DNA of 64,000 nt from Candidatus Chisholmbacteria bacterium (GTDB taxonomy: Bacteria; Patescibacteriota; Microgenomatia; UBA1400; Chisholmbacteraceae): assembly GCA_963704905.1 (NCBI GenBank), contig CAVPHZ010000001.1, positions 643,438 through 707,437 of the forward strand, read 5' to 3'. Positions 41,109-60,611 of this stretch are shown here, piece after piece. How positions within the stretch are numbered: the first letter of the stretch is position 1; each line of letters opens with the position of its first letter. The notes under the pieces are model-generated. The model was not told the origin of the DNA. It saw only the letters and a program-made list of their open reading frames with translations, and ran no database searches. Both the position numbers and the translations under genes were made by a program.

Positions 41109-42597
41109 AGAGTTTGATCCTGGCTCAGGATGAACGCTGGCGGTGTGCCTTAGGCATGCAAGTCGAACGGAGTCCTTCGGGACTATGACAGTGGCAGACG
41201 GGTGAGTAACGCGTAGGAATCTACCTCTTGGTGGGGAATAGCTCGTCGAAAGGTGGGGTAATACCGCATAAGATCTTCGGATGAAAGGCCGTAACTGGCC
41301 GCCGAGAGAGGAGCCTGCGTCCTATCAGCTTGTTGGTGAGGTAATGGCCTACCAAGGCTATGACGGGTAGGGGGTGTGAGAGCATGACCCCCCACAAGGT
41401 CACTGAGACACGGGACCTACACCTACGGGTGGCAGCAACTGGGAATATTGCGCAATGGGCGAAAGCCTGACGCAGCGACACCGCGTGTGGGATGAAGCCC
41501 TTCGGGGTGTAAACCACTGTGGCGAGGGGAAGAAGATCTGACGGTACCCTCGCTAGAAAGCACCTGCTAACTACGTGCCAGAAGCCTCGGTAATACGTAG
41601 GGTGCAAGCGTTATCCGGATTTACTGGGCGTAAAGAGTTTCGTAGGCGGTTTGATAAGTCCGATTGTTAAATCCCACGGCTCAACCGTGGAAATGGCGTC
41701 GGATACTGATCAGACTTGAGTGATGTTAGGGGAGGCTGGAATTCTCGGTGGAGGGGTGAAATCCGTTGATATCGAGAGGAACACCAAGGGCGAAGGCAGG
41801 CCTCTAGGGCATTACTGACGCTGAGGGACGAAAGCTAGGGTAGCAAAAGGGATTAGAGACCCCGGTAGTCCTAGCCGTAAACGATGGATACTAGCTGCTT
41901 GTTGTTTCAGTGAGTGGCGTAAGCTAACGCGTTAAGTATCCCGCCTGGGGAGTACGGCCGCAAGGTTAAAACTCAAAGGAATTGACGGGGGAGCGCACAA
42001 CCAGTGGAGCATGTGGTTTAATTCGATACAAAGCGAAGAACCTTACCTGGGTTTGACATGTACCTGCAAACTCTGGGAAACCAGAGCATCTCTTCGAGGG
42101 TGGTACACAGCTGCTGCATGGCTGTCGTCAGCTCGTGTCGTGAGACGTCCGCTTAAGTGCGGTAACGAGCGCAACCCCTGCCGTGTGTTAAATATTCACG
42201 CGGGACTGCCTTACAACAAGTAGGGAGGAAGGAGGGGATGACGTCAAGTCAGCATGGCGCTTACATCCAGGGCAACACACATCCTACAATGGGAAGGACA
42301 ACGGGTCGCGACGCGGCAACGCTGAGCTAATCCTTCAAACCTGGTCCTCAGTTCGGATTGAGGGCTGCAATTCGCCCTCATGAAGTCGGAATTGGTAGTA
42401 ATCGCAGGTCAGCAGACCGCGGTGAATACGTTCTCGCTTCTTGTACACACTGCCCGTCAAGCCAGCAAAGTCGGCAGCGCCCGAAGCGGGTGTCCGTAAC
42501 CGTCAAGGAGCGGCCCTTCTAAGGTGAGGTCGGCGATGAGGACTAAGTCGTAACAAGGTATCCGTACTGGAAGGTGCGGATGGATCACCTCCTTTCT
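41109..42597 (+). rRNA. rrs: 16S ribosomal RNA (complete, ~1.49 kb)
   Basis: 5' 'agagtttgatcctggctcag', 3' 'ggatcacctcctttct'; internal conserved blocks present, but the 515F/806R/1492R sites are variant (CPR-like). Confidence 0.95.
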
Positions 42598-42689
42598 AAG
42601 GAGTTTACATAACTCACGCAAGGTTTGTCGGAGTCCTTGTCCCGCTCGGCGGGAGAAAGAAACCGACCCTATCACATCTAAGACTAACA

Positions 42690-42790
42690 AGAATTGGTTG
42701 GAATCAGATTAAAATCGGTTGAAATTAGTTAGAATTGGTTGGAATTAGTTGCAATTAGTTTAAATCAGTCGAAGTCGGTTGGAATTTGCT
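42690..42790 (+). repeat. Degenerate 10-bp tandem repeat (about 10 units of g/t-aat-y-r-gtt-r) directly after 16S
   Basis: 'gaattggttg gaatcagatt aaaatcggtt gaaattagtt agaattggtt ggaattagtt gcaattagtt taaatcagtc gaagtcggtt ggaatttgct'. Confidence 0.7.
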
Positions 42791-42796
42791 AGAGAA

Positions 42797-42822
42797 GAAC
42801 CGCTCGGGAGAGCGGTTTTTTT
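42797..42822 (+). terminator. Rho-independent terminator after 16S and the spacer repeat
   Basis: 'gaaccgctcgggagagcggtt' perfect hairpin plus 'ttttttt'. Confidence 0.7.
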
Positions 42823-42849
42823 GTGGTGTATGGTAAGATTCGGTGCTTT

Positions 42850-57046: not shown

Positions 57047-57122
57047 GGGCCTGTAGCTCAGTTGGCTAGAGCGCTACATTTGCAATGTAGAGGTCACCGG
57101 TTCGAGTCCGGTCAGGTCCACC
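57047..57122 (+). tRNA. tRNA-Ala (anticodon UGC) with the G3-U70 identity pair
   Basis: 'gggcctgtagctcagttggctagagcgctacatttgcaatgtagaggtcaccggttcgagtccggtcaggtccacc'; acceptor gggcctg/caggtcc gives G3-U70. Confidence 0.9.
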
Positions 57123-57371
57123 TCGATTTGCTAAGCAAATCTCGGTGCGGGCACCTAAAAATAAGAAGCGTGTAAAGCATTTTTCGATGCGGGCACCTTT
57201 TAAAATAAGAACGAATCAAAGGTTGATGAGAGTTTATCTTTCATAAATATAAACTTTCGTGAGTCTTTGATCAGAGATGATCATATGAGCTCAGGCTAGC
57301 TCTTTGACAAGTGAATAGAATGTTTTGTCAAGTCATATTCCCATATGACTTGGTAGGACCGATCTTTGTAG

Positions 57372-60370
57372 CCAAACAATACAAAGTCTACTCAAGTAAA
57401 GCAGATAGTGGATGCCTTGGCATTAGATGGCCGAAGAAGGACGTGCATGACCGCGAAAGTCGTCGGGTGAGCTGTCAAGAAGCTTTGATCCGGCGGTGTC
57501 CGAATGGGGAAACCCGCTCCGATTAATATCGGAGCGTACTCTGACTTTATGTCGGGATGGGTAACCCGGGGAACTGAAATATCTAAGTACCCGGAGGAAA
57601 AGAAATCGAATGAGATTCCCTTAGTAAGCGACGAGCGAAAAGGGAAGAGCCCAAACCCCGAATTTATTCGGGGGGTTGTAGGACTCCACATCAGTGATGA
57701 TTTGCGGATAGCAGAAGACCGTGGAATAGGTCGCCAAAGAACGTGAAAGCCGTGTACTCGAAATTCTAGAAATCATCCGGGAAGTTCCTGAGTACCCTGG
57801 GAGACGGCAAACTCCTTGGGGAATCTGGGGCGACCACGCTCCAAGGCTAAATACTACATAATGACCGATAGTGAACTAGTACCGTGAGGGAAAGGTGAAA
57901 AGAAGGGTGAGAGACCCAGTGAAATAGTACCTGAAACTATTTGCTAACAAACAGACAGAGTCTCGACTTTAGTCAGGATGATGTCGTGCCTATTGAAGAA
58001 TGAGCCGGCGAGTTATTCGTGTACTTGCAAGCTTAAGCCATCGTCATGGCGGAGGCGTAGCGAAAGCGAGTCTGAATAGGGCGATTTAGTAGTAAGTACG
58101 GAAGACCCGAAACCAGGTGAGCTAACCATGGGCAGGGTGAACTCCGATCGAAAATCGGAGGGAGGCCCGAACCGGTATGAGTTGCAAGTCGCTCGGATGA
58201 CTTGTGGTTGGAGGTAAAATGCCAATCGAACCTGGAGATAGCTGGTTCTCCCCGAAATATATTTAGGTATAGGCTTCGATGTTAAGCCGTGTGGGGGTAG
58301 AGCACTGGATGGATGTTGGTGACGTAAGTCGTCGGCATTCAACCAAACTCCGAATACCATCAGCGTGTTTACGTGGGACTCAGTACGCTGCGGGGCTAAG
58401 CTCGTGGGGCAAAAGGGAAACAACCCAGACCCTCGTCTAAGGTCTCTAAATCATATGCTTAAGTGGGAAAGGAAGTCATTTTCCACAGACACCCAGGAGG
58501 TCGGCTTAGAAGCAGCCATCCTTGAAAGAAAGCGTAACAGCTCACTGGCCGAGGAATAGTGGCGCCGAAAATTCAACGAGGCTCAAGCATATGTACCGAA
58601 GACTAGGGATTTCTCGCATTTATAGCGATGAGTGGTAGGGGAGCGTTCTATGGGCAGTGAAGGTCGTACTGTAAGGCATGGCTGGAGCGCATAGAAGTGA
58701 GAATGCCGGTATGAGTAGCGAGAAACTGGTGAGAATCCAGCTCGCCGAATGCCCAAGGTTTCCGCAGCAACGTTCGTCGTCTTCGGGTTAGGCGGCCCTA
58801 AGGTGAGGCCATATAGGCGTAGCCGATGGATTACAGGTTAATATTCCCGTCCTTGGTTAATGATCGTTATTAGTTGGGGAGGGACGATGTCGGATAGACT
58901 TAAGCGGCGCGATTGAAGTTGCGCGCGTTTAATCCGCAAGGCAGTGGTCATAGGCAAATCCGTGACCATGACGTTTATCGAGCTGTGATGAAGAGTTCAA
59001 ACTTACGTGCGGAGCAATTTGAGACGATTTCAGCGTCCAAGAAAAGCTTCGCAACGAGATATTATATCAATCCGTACCGACAACCGACACAGGTGGACAG
59101 GTCGAGAATACTAAGGCGAGCGGGAGAACGCTGGTTTAAGGAACTCGGCAAATTAGCTGGGCGTAACGTTCGGAAGATGCCCTCCCTCGTAGCGATACGT
59201 GGGGCGCAGCGAAAGATTATGAAGCGACTGTTTACCAAAAACACAGGTCTGTGCAAACTCGAAAGAGGAAGTATACGGGCTGAGGCCTGCCCAGTGCCGG
59301 AAGGTTAAATGCGAGGGTGAATTCATCTTCGGAGATAGAGCCTTCAATTGAAGCCCCGGTGAACGGCAGCAGTAACTATAACTGTTCTATGGTAGCGAAG
59401 TCCCTTGTCGCTTAATTTGCGACCCGCACGAAAGGCGTAACGACTTCACAACTGTCTTGAACCATCGACTCGGCGAAATTGAAATGGCTGTGAAGATGCG
59501 GCCTACTGACAGCAGGACAAAAAGACCCCGTGGAGCTTTACTACAGCTTGGCACTGATTGTTCATGTTAGAATTGTCGAGAATAGGCGGGAGGTCCGACG
59601 TTTATCGTCGGACCATCAGTGAAATACCTCTCGTTTTGATATGGAAAATCTTACCTATAGATATCTGGAAACGATATCAGGGACACTGTCTGGTGGGTAG
59701 TTTAACTGGGGAGGTTGCTTGCTAAAGAGTAACGCAAGCGCACAAAGGTACCCTTAGCCCGGATGGAAATCGGGCTGTAACGTGCAACGGCATAAGCGAG
59801 CTTGACTGTGAGACATACAAGTCGAGCAGGTACGAAAGCAGGTCTTAGTGATCCTCGTGTGCTTTGTGGAAGGCACCGGGCTTAACGGATAAAAGCTACC
59901 CCGGGGATAACAGAGTAGTCGCGCCCAAGCGTCCATAGCGACGGCGCGGTTCGCTACCTCGATGTCGGCTCAGCGCATCCTGGGGCTGAAGAAGGTCCCA
60001 AGGGTTGGTCTGTTCGCCCATTAAAGCGCTACGTGAGCTGGGTTCAGAACGTCGTGAGACAGTTCGGCCTCTATCCGCTGTAAGCGTTGGAATCTTGAGG
60101 GAATCTGACCCCAGTACGAGAGGACCTGGTTGAGGGAATCCCTAGTGTGCCTGTTGTTCCCGTCAGGGGCATCGCAGGGTAGCTACACTTCCTAAGGATA
60201 ACCGCTGAAAGCATCTAAGCGGGAAGCCCATCCCAAGATGAGGAATCCGTGTCCGCCTTCGGGCGGACGAGAGACCGGTGGGAGATTACCACGTTGATAG
60301 GCGACGAGTGTACGCACAGTAATGTGTTTAGCTTAGTCGTACTAATCGGTCGAAGGTAGACTTTATTTGG
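57372..60370 (+). rRNA. rrl: 23S ribosomal RNA (about 3.0 kb; ends +/-20 nt)
   Basis: 5' region '...aaagcagatagtggatgccttggc'; helix-1 pairing between 57372-57391 'ccaaacaatacaaagtctac' and 60356-60370 'gtagactttatttgg'; conserved internal blocks ('gtaccgtgagggaaaggtgaaaag', 'ggataacaggctgat'-type regions). Confidence 0.9.
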
Positions 60371-60493
60371 TTACATTGATCGGTGCATTCTATTCATTTT
60401 TCAGAGAGCAAGCGAAAGCCACGCCACTATATTTGATGTGGTGAGGTAAACTTGGACAATTTACTCAAGTTTTAGAATCATATATAATACTAT

Positions 60494-60611
60494 TGCTGGT
60501 CTTTTGAGCGGGGTGGCCCTACCTCTTCCCATACCGAACAGAGTCGTCAAACACCCCAGCGCTGACGATAGTGCTACCGCAAGGTTGCGCGAAAATAGGT
60601 CAAGGCCAGCA
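60494..60611 (+). rRNA. rrf: 5S ribosomal RNA
   Basis: 5' 'ttgctggtc' pairs with 3' 'ggccagca'; internal 'cccataccgaacagag' loop C block; followed by 'tttttgtgg'. Confidence 0.8.

Follow-up and report, generated by a model that had tools for sequence, protein, structure and literature searches.

An unlinked rRNA gene set, probably in the state typical of its class, in a Microgenomates bacterium

We analysed a 64,000-nt stretch of DNA (the window) in which the 16S, tRNA-Ile, tRNA-Ala, 23S and 5S genes lie in canonical order, all on the plus strand, though interrupted, as had been described in an earlier reading made before any database search (the sequence-only reading). That reading reported ~12.8 kb between 16S and the tRNA-Ile/tRNA-Ala/23S/5S group, and the Rfam and ARAGORN positions agree, with a gap of 12,844 nt from 16S to tRNA-Ile and of 14,789 nt from 16S to 23S (42595 to 57385). 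It had placed the 16S gene at 41109–42597; the gene is there, with the Rfam edges given in Table 1 instead. Within the gap we found everything that it had listed, namely obg, a hypothetical (orphan) protein, three PKD-type genes and two ORF-poor stretches. The 14.8-kb spacer holds two intrinsic terminators and seven to eight ORFs, three of them on the minus strand. Two features had been overlooked: tRNA-Ile is itself unlinked from tRNA-Ala-23S-5S, lying 1,531 nt from tRNA-Ala with two ORFs and a terminator inside, and the first ORF-poor stretch contains a hammerhead.

Table 1. Features of the rRNA locus (positions within the window)
Feature	Position	Strand	Details
Best candidate 16S promoter (predicted)	40891-40918	+	TTGACT-16-TATTAT with TG; 191 nt upstream of 16S
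Hairpin in 16S leader	40974-40998	+	Ahead of boxA-like motif
BoxA-like motif in 16S leader	41021-41032	+	GCTCCTTGACAA
16S processing stem, 5' arm	41068-41094	+	27 nt, 89% complementary to 42668-42694
16S rRNA gene	41102-42595	+	RF00177, 1381 bits, model positions 1-1533 (Rfam); full length, without insertion
16S processing stem, 3' arm	42668-42694	+	Pairs with 41068-41094
Tandem repeat in 16S trailer	42690-42790	+	~10 copies of a 10-bp unit (GAATTAGTTG)
Intrinsic terminator closing 16S unit	42797-42823	+	dG -20.1 kcal/mol, z -6.4, then T7
Orphan ORF	42850-43935	+	361 aa, acidic; GC3 0.27
obg (GTPase ObgE)	44439-45458	+	PF01018, 4.8e-56; GC3 0.40, normal
PKD-like repeat protein A	45541-46503	-	3 repeats of ~95 aa, signal peptide
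PKD-like repeat protein B	46620-47567	-	3 repeats of ~95 aa, signal peptide; GC3 0.42, normal
ORF-poor, hairpin-dense stretch 1	47568-49321		Mean z -3.4/-3.9; 65-70% of windows below -3
Type III hammerhead ribozyme	48750-48804	-	Within ORF-poor stretch 1; self-cleavage predicted
PKD-repeat surface protein C	49322-53041	-	1239 aa; GC3 0.62; near-identical internal tandem duplications
ORF-poor, hairpin-dense stretch 2	53042-55439		Minus-strand promoter-like site 54995-54967; terminator-like hairpins
tRNA-Ile(GAT)	55440-55515	+	Rfam, ARAGORN
First ORF between the tRNA genes	55663-56076	+	137 aa; overlaps the next ORF
Second ORF between the tRNA genes	56073-56645	+	190 aa, membrane-like
Intrinsic terminator of two-ORF unit	56909-56936	+	Upstream of tRNA-Ala
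tRNA-Ala(TGC)	57047-57122	+	Rfam, ARAGORN
23S processing stem, 5' arm	57295-57322	+	28 nt, 86% complementary to 60386-60413
BoxA-like motif inside 23S-stem 5' arm	57299-57310	+	GCTCTTTGACAA
23S rRNA gene	57385-60364	+	RF02541, 2284 bits, model positions 1-2925
23S processing stem, 3' arm	60386-60413	+	Pairs with 57295-57322
5S rRNA gene	60495-60611	+	RF00001, 68.9 bits; 130 nt past 23S

Upstream, 16S adjoins mnmA, here as in 17 related loci. Relatives carry sigma-70-like sites 60–270 nt upstream of 16S that equal or exceed our candidate promoter in strength. Judged by its position, the leader hairpin may be boxB-like, or may be the terminator of the upstream Beta_propel gene. The terminator that the sequence-only reading had assigned to 16S is real, and a terminator-like element within 450 nt past 16S was present in 87 of 106 relatives (82%, among the matches listed) compared with 18 of 86 control segments. 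The tandem repeat in the trailer was not found in relatives. The boxA-like motif is enriched in relatives' rRNA leaders (16S, 13/23; 23S, 6/12), with 75 matches per 812 kb overall (approximately one per 10.8 kb). No convincing sigma-70 match was found in the window directly upstream of tRNA-Ile, tRNA-Ala or 23S, so that the candidate promoter previously proposed for the 23S-5S unit was not recovered. Among relatives, an extended -10 site ends 12–17 nt before tRNA-Ile in 17 of 30, and some have tRNA-Ile on the opposite strand.

A database search with the orphan ORF returned only itself, and the named homologues of Obg were from Patescibacteria or Microgenomates and at most 65% identical. Protein C exceeded the Pfam gathering score for PF18911 (74.1 bits) and PF00801 (45.5 bits). 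The PKD-like proteins A and B (~320 aa) gave no Pfam PKD match; the repeats in both are nonetheless homologues of the PKD repeats in C (32% identity, E = 3e-27), and the three genes are paralogues. A minus-strand promoter-like site (11/12 match) lies at 47659–47631.

Both non-coding stretches are unusually dense in hairpins, and a six-frame Pfam search of the first gave no match. The hammerhead within the first scored 35.6 bits with RF00008, below the gathering threshold of 48.5 (E = 1.4e-4 over 14.8 kb). Its core is complete (CUGAAGA...GAAA, with C at the cleavage site), stems I and II are capped, stem III is open, and all conserved elements are present in the model alignment (C3–A9, G12–A14, the A15.1–U16.1 pair, H17 and three helices). 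The minimum free energy fold is a three-way junction (z -4.4). In stem I, which lay outside the search pattern, six of seven pairs were changed on both sides among relatives and 95.5% of cells were paired, compared with 23–46% in slid controls; covariation among relatives backs the helices. By these sequence features the element appears to be a genuine type III hammerhead ribozyme, with the same core and helices as the type III hammerheads of RF00008. It falls in a compact subgroup of metagenomic members in which loop 1 (UGUGUA) is conserved and stem II has 4 bp. It is conceivable, if rather unlikely, that the two ORF-poor stretches are long structured minus-strand RNAs co-transcribed with the PKD genes, and that the hammerhead cuts between the PKD-C and the PKD-B/PKD-A messages. 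If so, this would be a ribozyme-processed surface-protein operon whose leader and intergenic RNAs are structured on the kilobase scale, in a genome otherwise with almost no non-coding DNA.

We compared the locus with others that exactly match a 46-mer from the 3' end of 16S, which is common to Shapiro-, Woese-, Collier-, Pace-, Ames- and Blackburnbacteria MAGs. This match and the named Obg homologues place the organism in the Microgenomates. Among the matches listed, 119 loci were fetched, of which 92 were informative. The closest relatives found are remote, with at most 89% identity in 16S and 65% in Obg. The 23S gene lay within 1500 nt of 16S in one of the 92 informative loci among the matches listed, and 91 were unlinked. 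In ten of the 92, 23S followed at 2.2–6.7 kb, in the order 16S-(Ile)-Ala-23S and with unrelated genes in the spacer. The other 81 had no 23S in the available sequence (median lower bound 4.1 kb); blocks were at most 8 kb and some loci stop at contig ends, so most 16S–23S distances are lower bounds. The 14.8 kb found here is greater than each of the 11 distances measurable in relatives. Their spacer genes vary by lineage and include a TraG-like ATPase, NUDIX, HIT, an acyltransferase, an ATP-citrate-lyase-like protein and an antitoxin; obg, the orphan ORF and the PKD genes were absent from the relatives' spacers at the loci among the matches listed. The sequence-only reading had suggested insertion(s) into a once-contiguous operon, with synteny in related genomes as a check. 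Growth by insertions fits the relatives; a recent event does not. Since 91 of the 92 informative related loci are unlinked, the split is a clade-wide state rather than a recent event of this genome; the sequence-only reading had itself named a shared arrangement in related genomes as counting against its suggestion.

Very probably, then, the locus holds the only rRNA gene set of a bacterium of the Microgenomates (CPR/Patescibacteria), unlinked as is typical of its class, with separate units and a spacer filled piecemeal. The first unit would run from a promoter through a leader carrying a boxA-like element, and 16S in its own processing stem, to an intrinsic terminator; the second, tRNA-Ile alone; and the third, tRNA-Ala, a boxA-like element, 23S in its own processing stem and 5S. 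Between them, the orphan ORF, obg, the minus-strand PKD-like trio and the two-ORF unit between the tRNAs would be transcribed independently. Separate transcription is suggested because each rRNA has local stems and boxA-like elements, 16S has its terminator, three genes lie on the opposite strand, and tRNA-Ile is cut off by a terminated two-gene unit. Historically, 16S would have kept its ancestral place beside mnmA. The clade's common ancestor would already have had an open spacer, which lineage-specific genes would later have filled, here up to 14.8 kb. The differing spacer genes among lineages, with no obg, orphan or PKD genes in the relatives compared, point to many small events. The conserved mnmA-16S neighbourhood and the ten relatives in canonical order fit spacer growth by insertions rather than relocation of 16S.

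The sequence-only reading had pointed to the GC-rich PKD block as a possible cause of the split. The block is real (GC 0.54–0.57 at 49–53 kb, ~0.42 elsewhere), but we consider it improbable that one foreign GC-rich island was recently inserted into an operon contiguous until then. In favour of such an island, the gene of protein C has a GC3 of 0.62 against a background of 0.413 ± 0.044 (z ~+4.7) and is flanked by the two hairpin-dense non-coding stretches, no full-length homologue of the protein was found, and the proteins that its short Cys-rich repeats match are mostly of T9SS type and from other phyla. However, among the three PKD-like genes GC3 is raised only in this one; in A and B the high GC is located at codon position 2 and reflects amino-acid composition, and PKD-B has a normal GC3. 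The plus-strand GC3 skew is normal for all three genes, which as paralogues do not form a clean foreign wedge. Moreover, no more than 7.9 of the 12.8 kb can be ascribed to the block, and the spacer also holds the orphan ORF and obg (with its normal GC3); a search for an integrase, a transposase and flanking direct repeats found none; and the split is clade-wide among the matches listed.

Another reading is an assembly artefact, with a chimeric join in this metagenome contig at or close to its conserved rRNA or tRNA genes. Metagenome assemblies are classically prone to mis-joins at rRNA genes, and the breaks between Logan contigs fall exactly at the 3' end of 16S and within tRNA-Ile and tRNA-Ala. 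We nevertheless regard an artefact as very improbable. The 16S leader pairs with its trailer, as does that of 23S, so there is no join inside either gene, and relatives share the mnmA gene upstream of 16S. Logan contigs from a second assembler (run ERR12037370), probably built from the reads that also gave the assembly, and with gaps at 44.03–44.37 kb and 47.7–55.5 kb, reproduce the 16S 3' end to the orphan ORF (joining trailer and terminator), obg to PKD-A and PKD-B, and the 3' end of tRNA-Ile through the two ORFs into tRNA-Ala. Third-position GC skew is uniform through the region, and the same architecture is the rule among the 119 related loci, among the matches listed, which come from independent projects. 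Scarcely credible is one very long operon, in which boxA-loaded antitermination complexes would read through the terminator and 12.8 kb to co-transcribe 16S and 23S: boxA-like motifs are present and the rRNA and tRNA genes, orphan ORF and obg share the plus strand, but read-through would face a strong intrinsic terminator past 16S and a second before tRNA-Ala and would be antisense to minus-strand genes for 5.6 kb. In addition, 23S has a boxA-like element of its own, and in relatives a promoter-like site is dedicated to tRNA-Ile, which in some of them lies on the opposite strand.

The preferred reading is backed by published surveys, in which unlinked 16S and 23S genes are typical of CPR; the sequence-only reading had also stated that they occur there, and in some symbionts. 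Brewer et al. (bioRxiv 10.1101/705046) call rRNA genes unlinked when the closest 16S and 23S edges are more than 1500 bp apart, and name Patescibacteria among the clades having them; the distance here is nearly 14.8 kb. For 'type D: unlinked by distance', Lui et al. 2021 (PMC8172020) require a separation of more than 2000 bp along one strand, with opposite-strand genes in between that exclude a shared promoter, and here three minus-strand genes occupy 45541–53041. They found unlinked rRNA genes in 27 of 34 circularised CPR genomes. Like those genomes, the locus has a distance far beyond 1500 or 2000 bp, rRNA genes on one strand, opposite-strand protein genes between them and 23S still adjacent to 5S, in a small-genome CPR organism. 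Nothing essential differs; here the canonical order and both spacer tRNAs are kept. The split is the normal, previously described rRNA state of CPR/Microgenomates, an extreme yet ordinary case, its 14.8 kb modest against the hundreds of kb in some published genomes.

In the Microgenomates genome Ch65 (Kadnikov et al. 2020, PMC7143001), trnI and trnA are likewise separated by two protein genes, and the strands show a strong G/C disparity. Ch65 is described as one cluster, without the 12.8-kb block between 16S and trnI that is present here; its 23S carries a LAGLIDADG intron, which ours lacks, and its rRNA-bearing strand is C-rich where ours is G-rich. With a canonical rrn operon the locus shares gene order (16S-tRNA-23S-5S), orientation on one strand, RNase III-type stems around the rRNAs, and boxA-like elements both in the leader and ahead of 23S. 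Unlike that operon, with its short spacer (~0.4 kb) free of terminators and protein genes, it has a 14.8-kb spacer that contains terminators and seven or eight protein-coding genes, of which three run antisense. Split rRNA genes are classically found in reduced or unusual genomes, among them Buchnera, Wolbachia, Borrelia and Mycoplasma gallisepticum (cited in PMC8172020). Thermus and Helicobacter have split rRNA genes too. In such genomes transcription of 16S is separate from that of 23S-5S, with a promoter and processing signals for each, as is predicted here. Their rRNA genes are usually far apart or rearranged, whereas here order and orientation are kept, so that the history of spacer growth can still be read.

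The split between 16S and the block of tRNA-Ile, tRNA-Ala, 23S and 5S that the sequence-only reading had claimed was confirmed, with the canonical order retained, and its coordinates for the RNA genes were right to within a few bases (Rfam and ARAGORN). The gap from 16S to tRNA-Ile is 12,844 nt and the 16S-23S distance is 14,789 nt. A further separation, absent from that reading, unlinks tRNA-Ile from tRNA-Ala by 1,531 nt containing two overlapping ORFs. The gaps from tRNA-Ala to 23S and from 23S to 5S are 262 nt and 130 nt.

Features of the rRNA locus and its spacer in the window
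Feature	Position	Strand	Basis or remark
boxA-like motif GCTCCTTGACAA	41021-41032		16S leader
16S rRNA	41102-42595	+	Rfam
~Ten tandem copies of 10-bp unit (GAATTAGTTG/GAATTGGTTG)	42690-42790		between 16S processing stem and terminator
Orphan ORF, acidic	42850-43935	+	
obg	44439-45458	+	PF01018 at 4.8e-56
PKD-A, 320 aa, three ~95-aa repeats	45541-46503	-	
PKD-B, 315 aa, three ~95-aa repeats	46620-47567	-	
Stretch 1, ORF-poor	47568-49321		
Type III hammerhead ribozyme	48750-48804	-	Rfam E-value scan
PKD-C, 1239-aa PKD-repeat protein	49322-53041	-	
Stretch 2, ORF-poor	53042-55439		
tRNA-Ile(GAT)	55440-55515	+	Rfam, ARAGORN
Two overlapping ORFs, 137 + 190 aa, between tRNA-Ile and tRNA-Ala	55663-56645		
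tRNA-Ala(TGC)	57047-57122	+	Rfam, ARAGORN
boxA-like motif GCTCTTTGACAA	57299-57310		23S leader
23S rRNA	57385-60364	+	Rfam
5S rRNA	60495-60611	+	Rfam

The named Obg homologues, at about 59% identity or less, were Patescibacteria or Microgenomates (best matches overall up to 65%). The last 46 nt of 16S were exactly common to at least 119 genome contigs, labelled Shapiro-, Woese-, Collier-, Pace-, Ames-, Blackburnbacteria and similar, and the best 16S identities among the matches listed were 89%, 87% and 87%. Together these results place the source organism in the class Microgenomatia, where its lineage stands rather isolated. Obg could not provide synteny with a close relative, its best homologues being at most 65% identical and none a near relative; the long contigs fetched through it (L001-L006) carried obg away from any rRNA gene.

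Related loci were represented by the exact 46-mer at the 16S 3' end (at least 119 loci), in sequence blocks of up to 8 kb, some ending at contig ends, so that most 16S-23S distances are lower bounds. We placed 23S by BLASTN and tRNA genes by ARAGORN, and counted a locus as informative if its downstream sequence ran for 1500 nt or more or if it showed 23S (n = 92 among the matches listed). 23S lay within 1500 nt of 16S in just one of these 92 loci (1,009 nt) and at 2.2-6.7 kb in ten; in the other 81 no 23S was present within the available sequence (median lower bound 4.1 kb; 5 kb or more in 37). In loci with a visible 23S the order was 16S, usually tRNA-Ile, tRNA-Ala and 23S, with one locus showing no tRNA-Ile; tRNA-Ala was close before 23S, and tRNA-Ile was at a very variable distance and sometimes on the opposite strand. 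The genes in these spacers were ordinary and mutually unrelated (NUDIX, HIT, acyltransferase_3, an ATP-citrate-lyase-like protein, Phd antitoxin and a TraG/TrwB-like ATPase). The last of these, a coupling ATPase of about 711 aa (PF12696, PF10412), lay on the opposite strand in the 16S-23S spacer of four related loci (L043, L064, L096 and L114). Nothing like obg, the orphan ORF, the PKD genes or the window's two small ORFs was found in the relatives' spacers listed, and the relatives' obg was located elsewhere.

Rather than being an event of this genome, the split is how the rRNA genes of the class are normally arranged, and the window's 16S-23S distance is at the long end of the measurable distances, nothing more. 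16S retained its ancestral neighbour and the RNA genes also retained their order, while spacer length and content vary from lineage to lineage; because of this pattern, we suggest that repeated small insertions and losses would have shaped a spacer that long ago ceased to be a transcribed spacer. The earlier proposal of insertions into a once-contiguous operon holds as far as the split locus, the kept order and growth of the spacer by insertion are concerned; recency and causation by the PKD block fall away. The synteny comparison showed that relatives share the unlinked arrangement; by the criterion that the sequence-only reading itself had set, this takes away the support for a recent wedge.

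The compositional argument for a GC-rich PKD block is also weaker than it looks, as GC3 and skew are mostly normal. The raised GC of PKD-A and PKD-B sits mainly at codon position 2 and follows from the amino acids that they encode; GC3 is 0.50 in PKD-A and 0.42 in PKD-B, compared with 0.413 +/- 0.044 in the background. PKD-C (0.62) is the only PKD gene that stands out, and the orphan ORF (0.27) is an outlier in the opposite direction. Outside the PKD block each 1-kb window had a positive GC skew, regardless of gene strand. The near-zero bulk skew at 46-53 kb is due to codon positions 1 and 2 of the minus-strand genes. All three PKD genes have the same plus-strand third-position skew as the rest of the window (mean +0.37), and we rejected skew as a sign of recent insertion. 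Neither an integrase nor a transposase domain was detected, nor any convincing direct repeats at the flanks; a 30-nt similarity between two terminators (42797 v 43956) and a 13-nt copy of the tRNA-Ala 5' end (56963) were too short to build on.

Several results speak against an assembly artefact. The leader and trailer stems of 16S and 23S each pair across their own gene, so that no join lies inside either; mnmA is upstream of 16S in the window and in at least 17 related loci; and third-position GC skew is even across the region. Contigs of run ERR12037370 from another assembler, probably built from the same reads as the assembly, reproduced the last ~20 nt of 16S through the orphan ORF, obg through PKD-B, and the tRNA-Ile 3' end through both ORFs into tRNA-Ala; they do not bridge 44.03-44.37 kb or 47.7-55.5 kb.

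The orphan ORF matched only itself among 5.8 billion proteins, and had no Pfam or NCBIfam match and one marginal PHROG match (E 0.0066). A Beta_propel gene (PF09826, 38727-40874) sits between mnmA and 16S, with obg on the 3' side of 16S. In one relative fetched through Obg (L005/L006, 10001-13199) a Beta_propel gene, 45% identical over its full length and probably the orthologue, comes directly after obg; the two genes now flanking 16S may once have been adjacent. Within 56963-57012, 13 nt of the tRNA-Ala 5' end (GGGCCTGTAGCTC) occur a second time without mismatch, 72 nt upstream of the real gene, and a perfect 14-bp hairpin (56975-57012) follows directly. This copy may be a rearrangement scar at a tRNA gene.

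We analysed the signals for transcription and processing. 16S is flanked by a 27-nt stem (41068-41094 with 42668-42694, 89% complementary) and 23S by a 28-nt stem (57295-57322 with 60386-60413, 86% complementary), which are the usual RNase III-type processing stems, each pairing locally. The 10-bp repeat array is presumably transcribed as part of the pre-16S trailer; no comparable array was found 3' of 16S in the related loci scanned. The trailer ends in a hairpin (-20.1 kcal/mol, z -6.4) with seven T after it, and the two-ORF unit likewise ends in a terminator of this type (56909-56936), shortly before tRNA-Ala. Of the 106 related loci listed, 87 (82%) had a hairpin with a T-run in the 450 nt that follow 16S (median offset 158 nt), compared with 18/86 control segments 1.5 kb further on.

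The boxA-like motif was present in 13/23 related 16S leaders and 6/12 related 23S leaders, against 75 matches per 812 kb overall. Since it recurs in these leaders, the TTGACA hexamers at 41027 and 57304, which belong to it and are without a -10 element, were rejected as promoters. The best candidate 16S promoter is TTGACT-16-TATTAT with an upstream TG (40891-40918), 191 nt upstream of 16S and inside the 60-270 nt range of promoter-like sites in relatives. For the minus-strand genes there are promoter-like sites at 47659-47631 (11/12 match) and 54995-54967. A near-consensus site in the 23S-5S spacer (TTTACT-17-TATAAT, 60460-60488) ends 6 nt before 5S; it could have arisen by chance, the sequence being AT-rich, or could serve 5S as a promoter of its own.

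In relatives, a -10 element ended 12-17 nt before tRNA-Ile in 17 of the 30 loci listed, 14 of them with a TG extension, which points to tRNA-Ile as a stand-alone unit of a leaderless-like kind. The conserved extended form (TGnTAnAAT) was seen in related loci L017, L018, L024, L031, L034, L050, L064, L068 and others, including L070, L077, L086, L117, L124 and L125. The window is without this element before tRNA-Ile, and no convincing promoter was found there directly upstream of tRNA-Ile or tRNA-Ala. An 89-aa ORF (55163-55432) ends 7 nt before the window's tRNA-Ile. From the stems, terminators, boxA-like motifs and promoter-like sites together, we predict that the RNA genes form three or more separate units (16S; tRNA-Ile; tRNA-Ala-23S-5S), with independent units of protein genes between them.

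Pfam PKD models were matched by PKD-C only. The repeats of PKD-A and PKD-B share homology with the PKD repeats of PKD-C (32% identity, E 3e-27), which makes "three PKD-repeat surface-protein genes" a fair description; judged by the same homology, the three are paralogues. PKD-C had no full-length homologue, and its 32-aa Cys-rich repeats alone, covering ~10% of the protein, found partners. Within 50460-52709 it contains pairs of 270-276-nt repeats with 97-99% identity and 3.8 copies of a 96-nt repeat with 99% identity, which may be very recent duplications or a copy-number error of short-read assembly. PKD-C may have been gained later, or may be a local paralogue that evolves fast.

The two ORF-poor stretches total 4.1 kb inside an otherwise gene-dense window, and both are much richer in hairpins than coding sequence is. 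In a folding scan of a subset of the window (160-nt windows), mean z was -3.4 (plus) and -3.9 (minus) in stretch 1 and -2.1 and -2.7 in stretch 2, compared with ~0 in the coding background; both stretches were thus slightly more stable on the minus strand. Windows with z < -3 made up 65-70% of stretch 1 and 0-5% of background. The minus strand of 54300-54965 folded at -251 kcal/mol, against -173 +/- 7 for shuffles (z about -11). Stretch 1 also has two related long hairpins (47906-47952 and 49040-49092) with a common CCCAGTNCCGG. Pseudogenes in stretch 1 were rejected, as six-frame translations gave no Pfam match, and neither stretch resembled any fetched locus beyond the hammerhead.

This hammerhead was the only element found in the Rfam E-value scan of the spacer, which gave no intron of group I or II, no riboswitch and no large ncRNA family. 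It scored 35.6 bits, below the gathering score of 48.5 (E 1.4e-4 over the 14.8 kb searched), and sits between PKD-C and PKD-B, 520 nt past the stop of the former and 1.18 kb ahead of the start of the latter. Its core is complete and its MFE fold is a three-way junction (z -4.4). A metagenome scan whose pattern left everything free but the core, stem II and the 3' strand of stem III found 21 loci. In 16 sequences aligned from these loci the 5' strand of stem III was complementary bar one G-U pair, the cleavage nucleotide was C, U or A, and 6/7 stem I pairs covaried, with 95.5% of cells paired v 23-46% in slid controls. The element is a genuine member of a compact metagenomic subgroup of hammerheads. 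On other contigs the hammerheads were intergenic and beside varied genes, with no conserved protein partner; a scan of viral contigs gave 0 matches. One 1407-bp metagenome contig (L145) has two related hammerheads (248-274 and 1245-1271) 997 nt apart in the same orientation, and may be a concatemer derived from some small circular element.

Of the elements described here, only the hammerhead and the structured stretches might repay experiments, and they are minor leads. Nothing changes in what is known of CPR rRNA genes; the survey adds to published counts the post-16S terminator, the tRNA-Ile promoter-like site, the boxA-like elements and the unrelated housekeeping genes of the spacers. The locus is a readable example of an rRNA operon coming apart with its order retained. 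Methods that amplify or bin on contiguous 16S-ITS-23S will miss this organism and nearly all its class, and a short amplicon cannot tie 16S to 23S here.

For this clade the arrangement is nothing unusual, and published work has described it before. Unlinked rRNA genes, defined as more than 1500 bp apart, predominate in Patescibacteria among other clades (Brewer et al., bioRxiv 10.1101/705046), and 27/34 circularised CPR genomes were unlinked in the study of Lui et al. (PMC8172020), whose type D (same strand, >2000 bp, opposite-strand genes in between) fits the window exactly. The Microgenomates genome of Kadnikov et al. (PMC7143001) has two protein genes between trnI and trnA and a strong strand G/C disparity, both of which are present in the window. 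However, in the disparity reported there for the Microgenomates order UBA1400 the rRNA-bearing strand is C-rich, whereas the GC skew of the window is positive.
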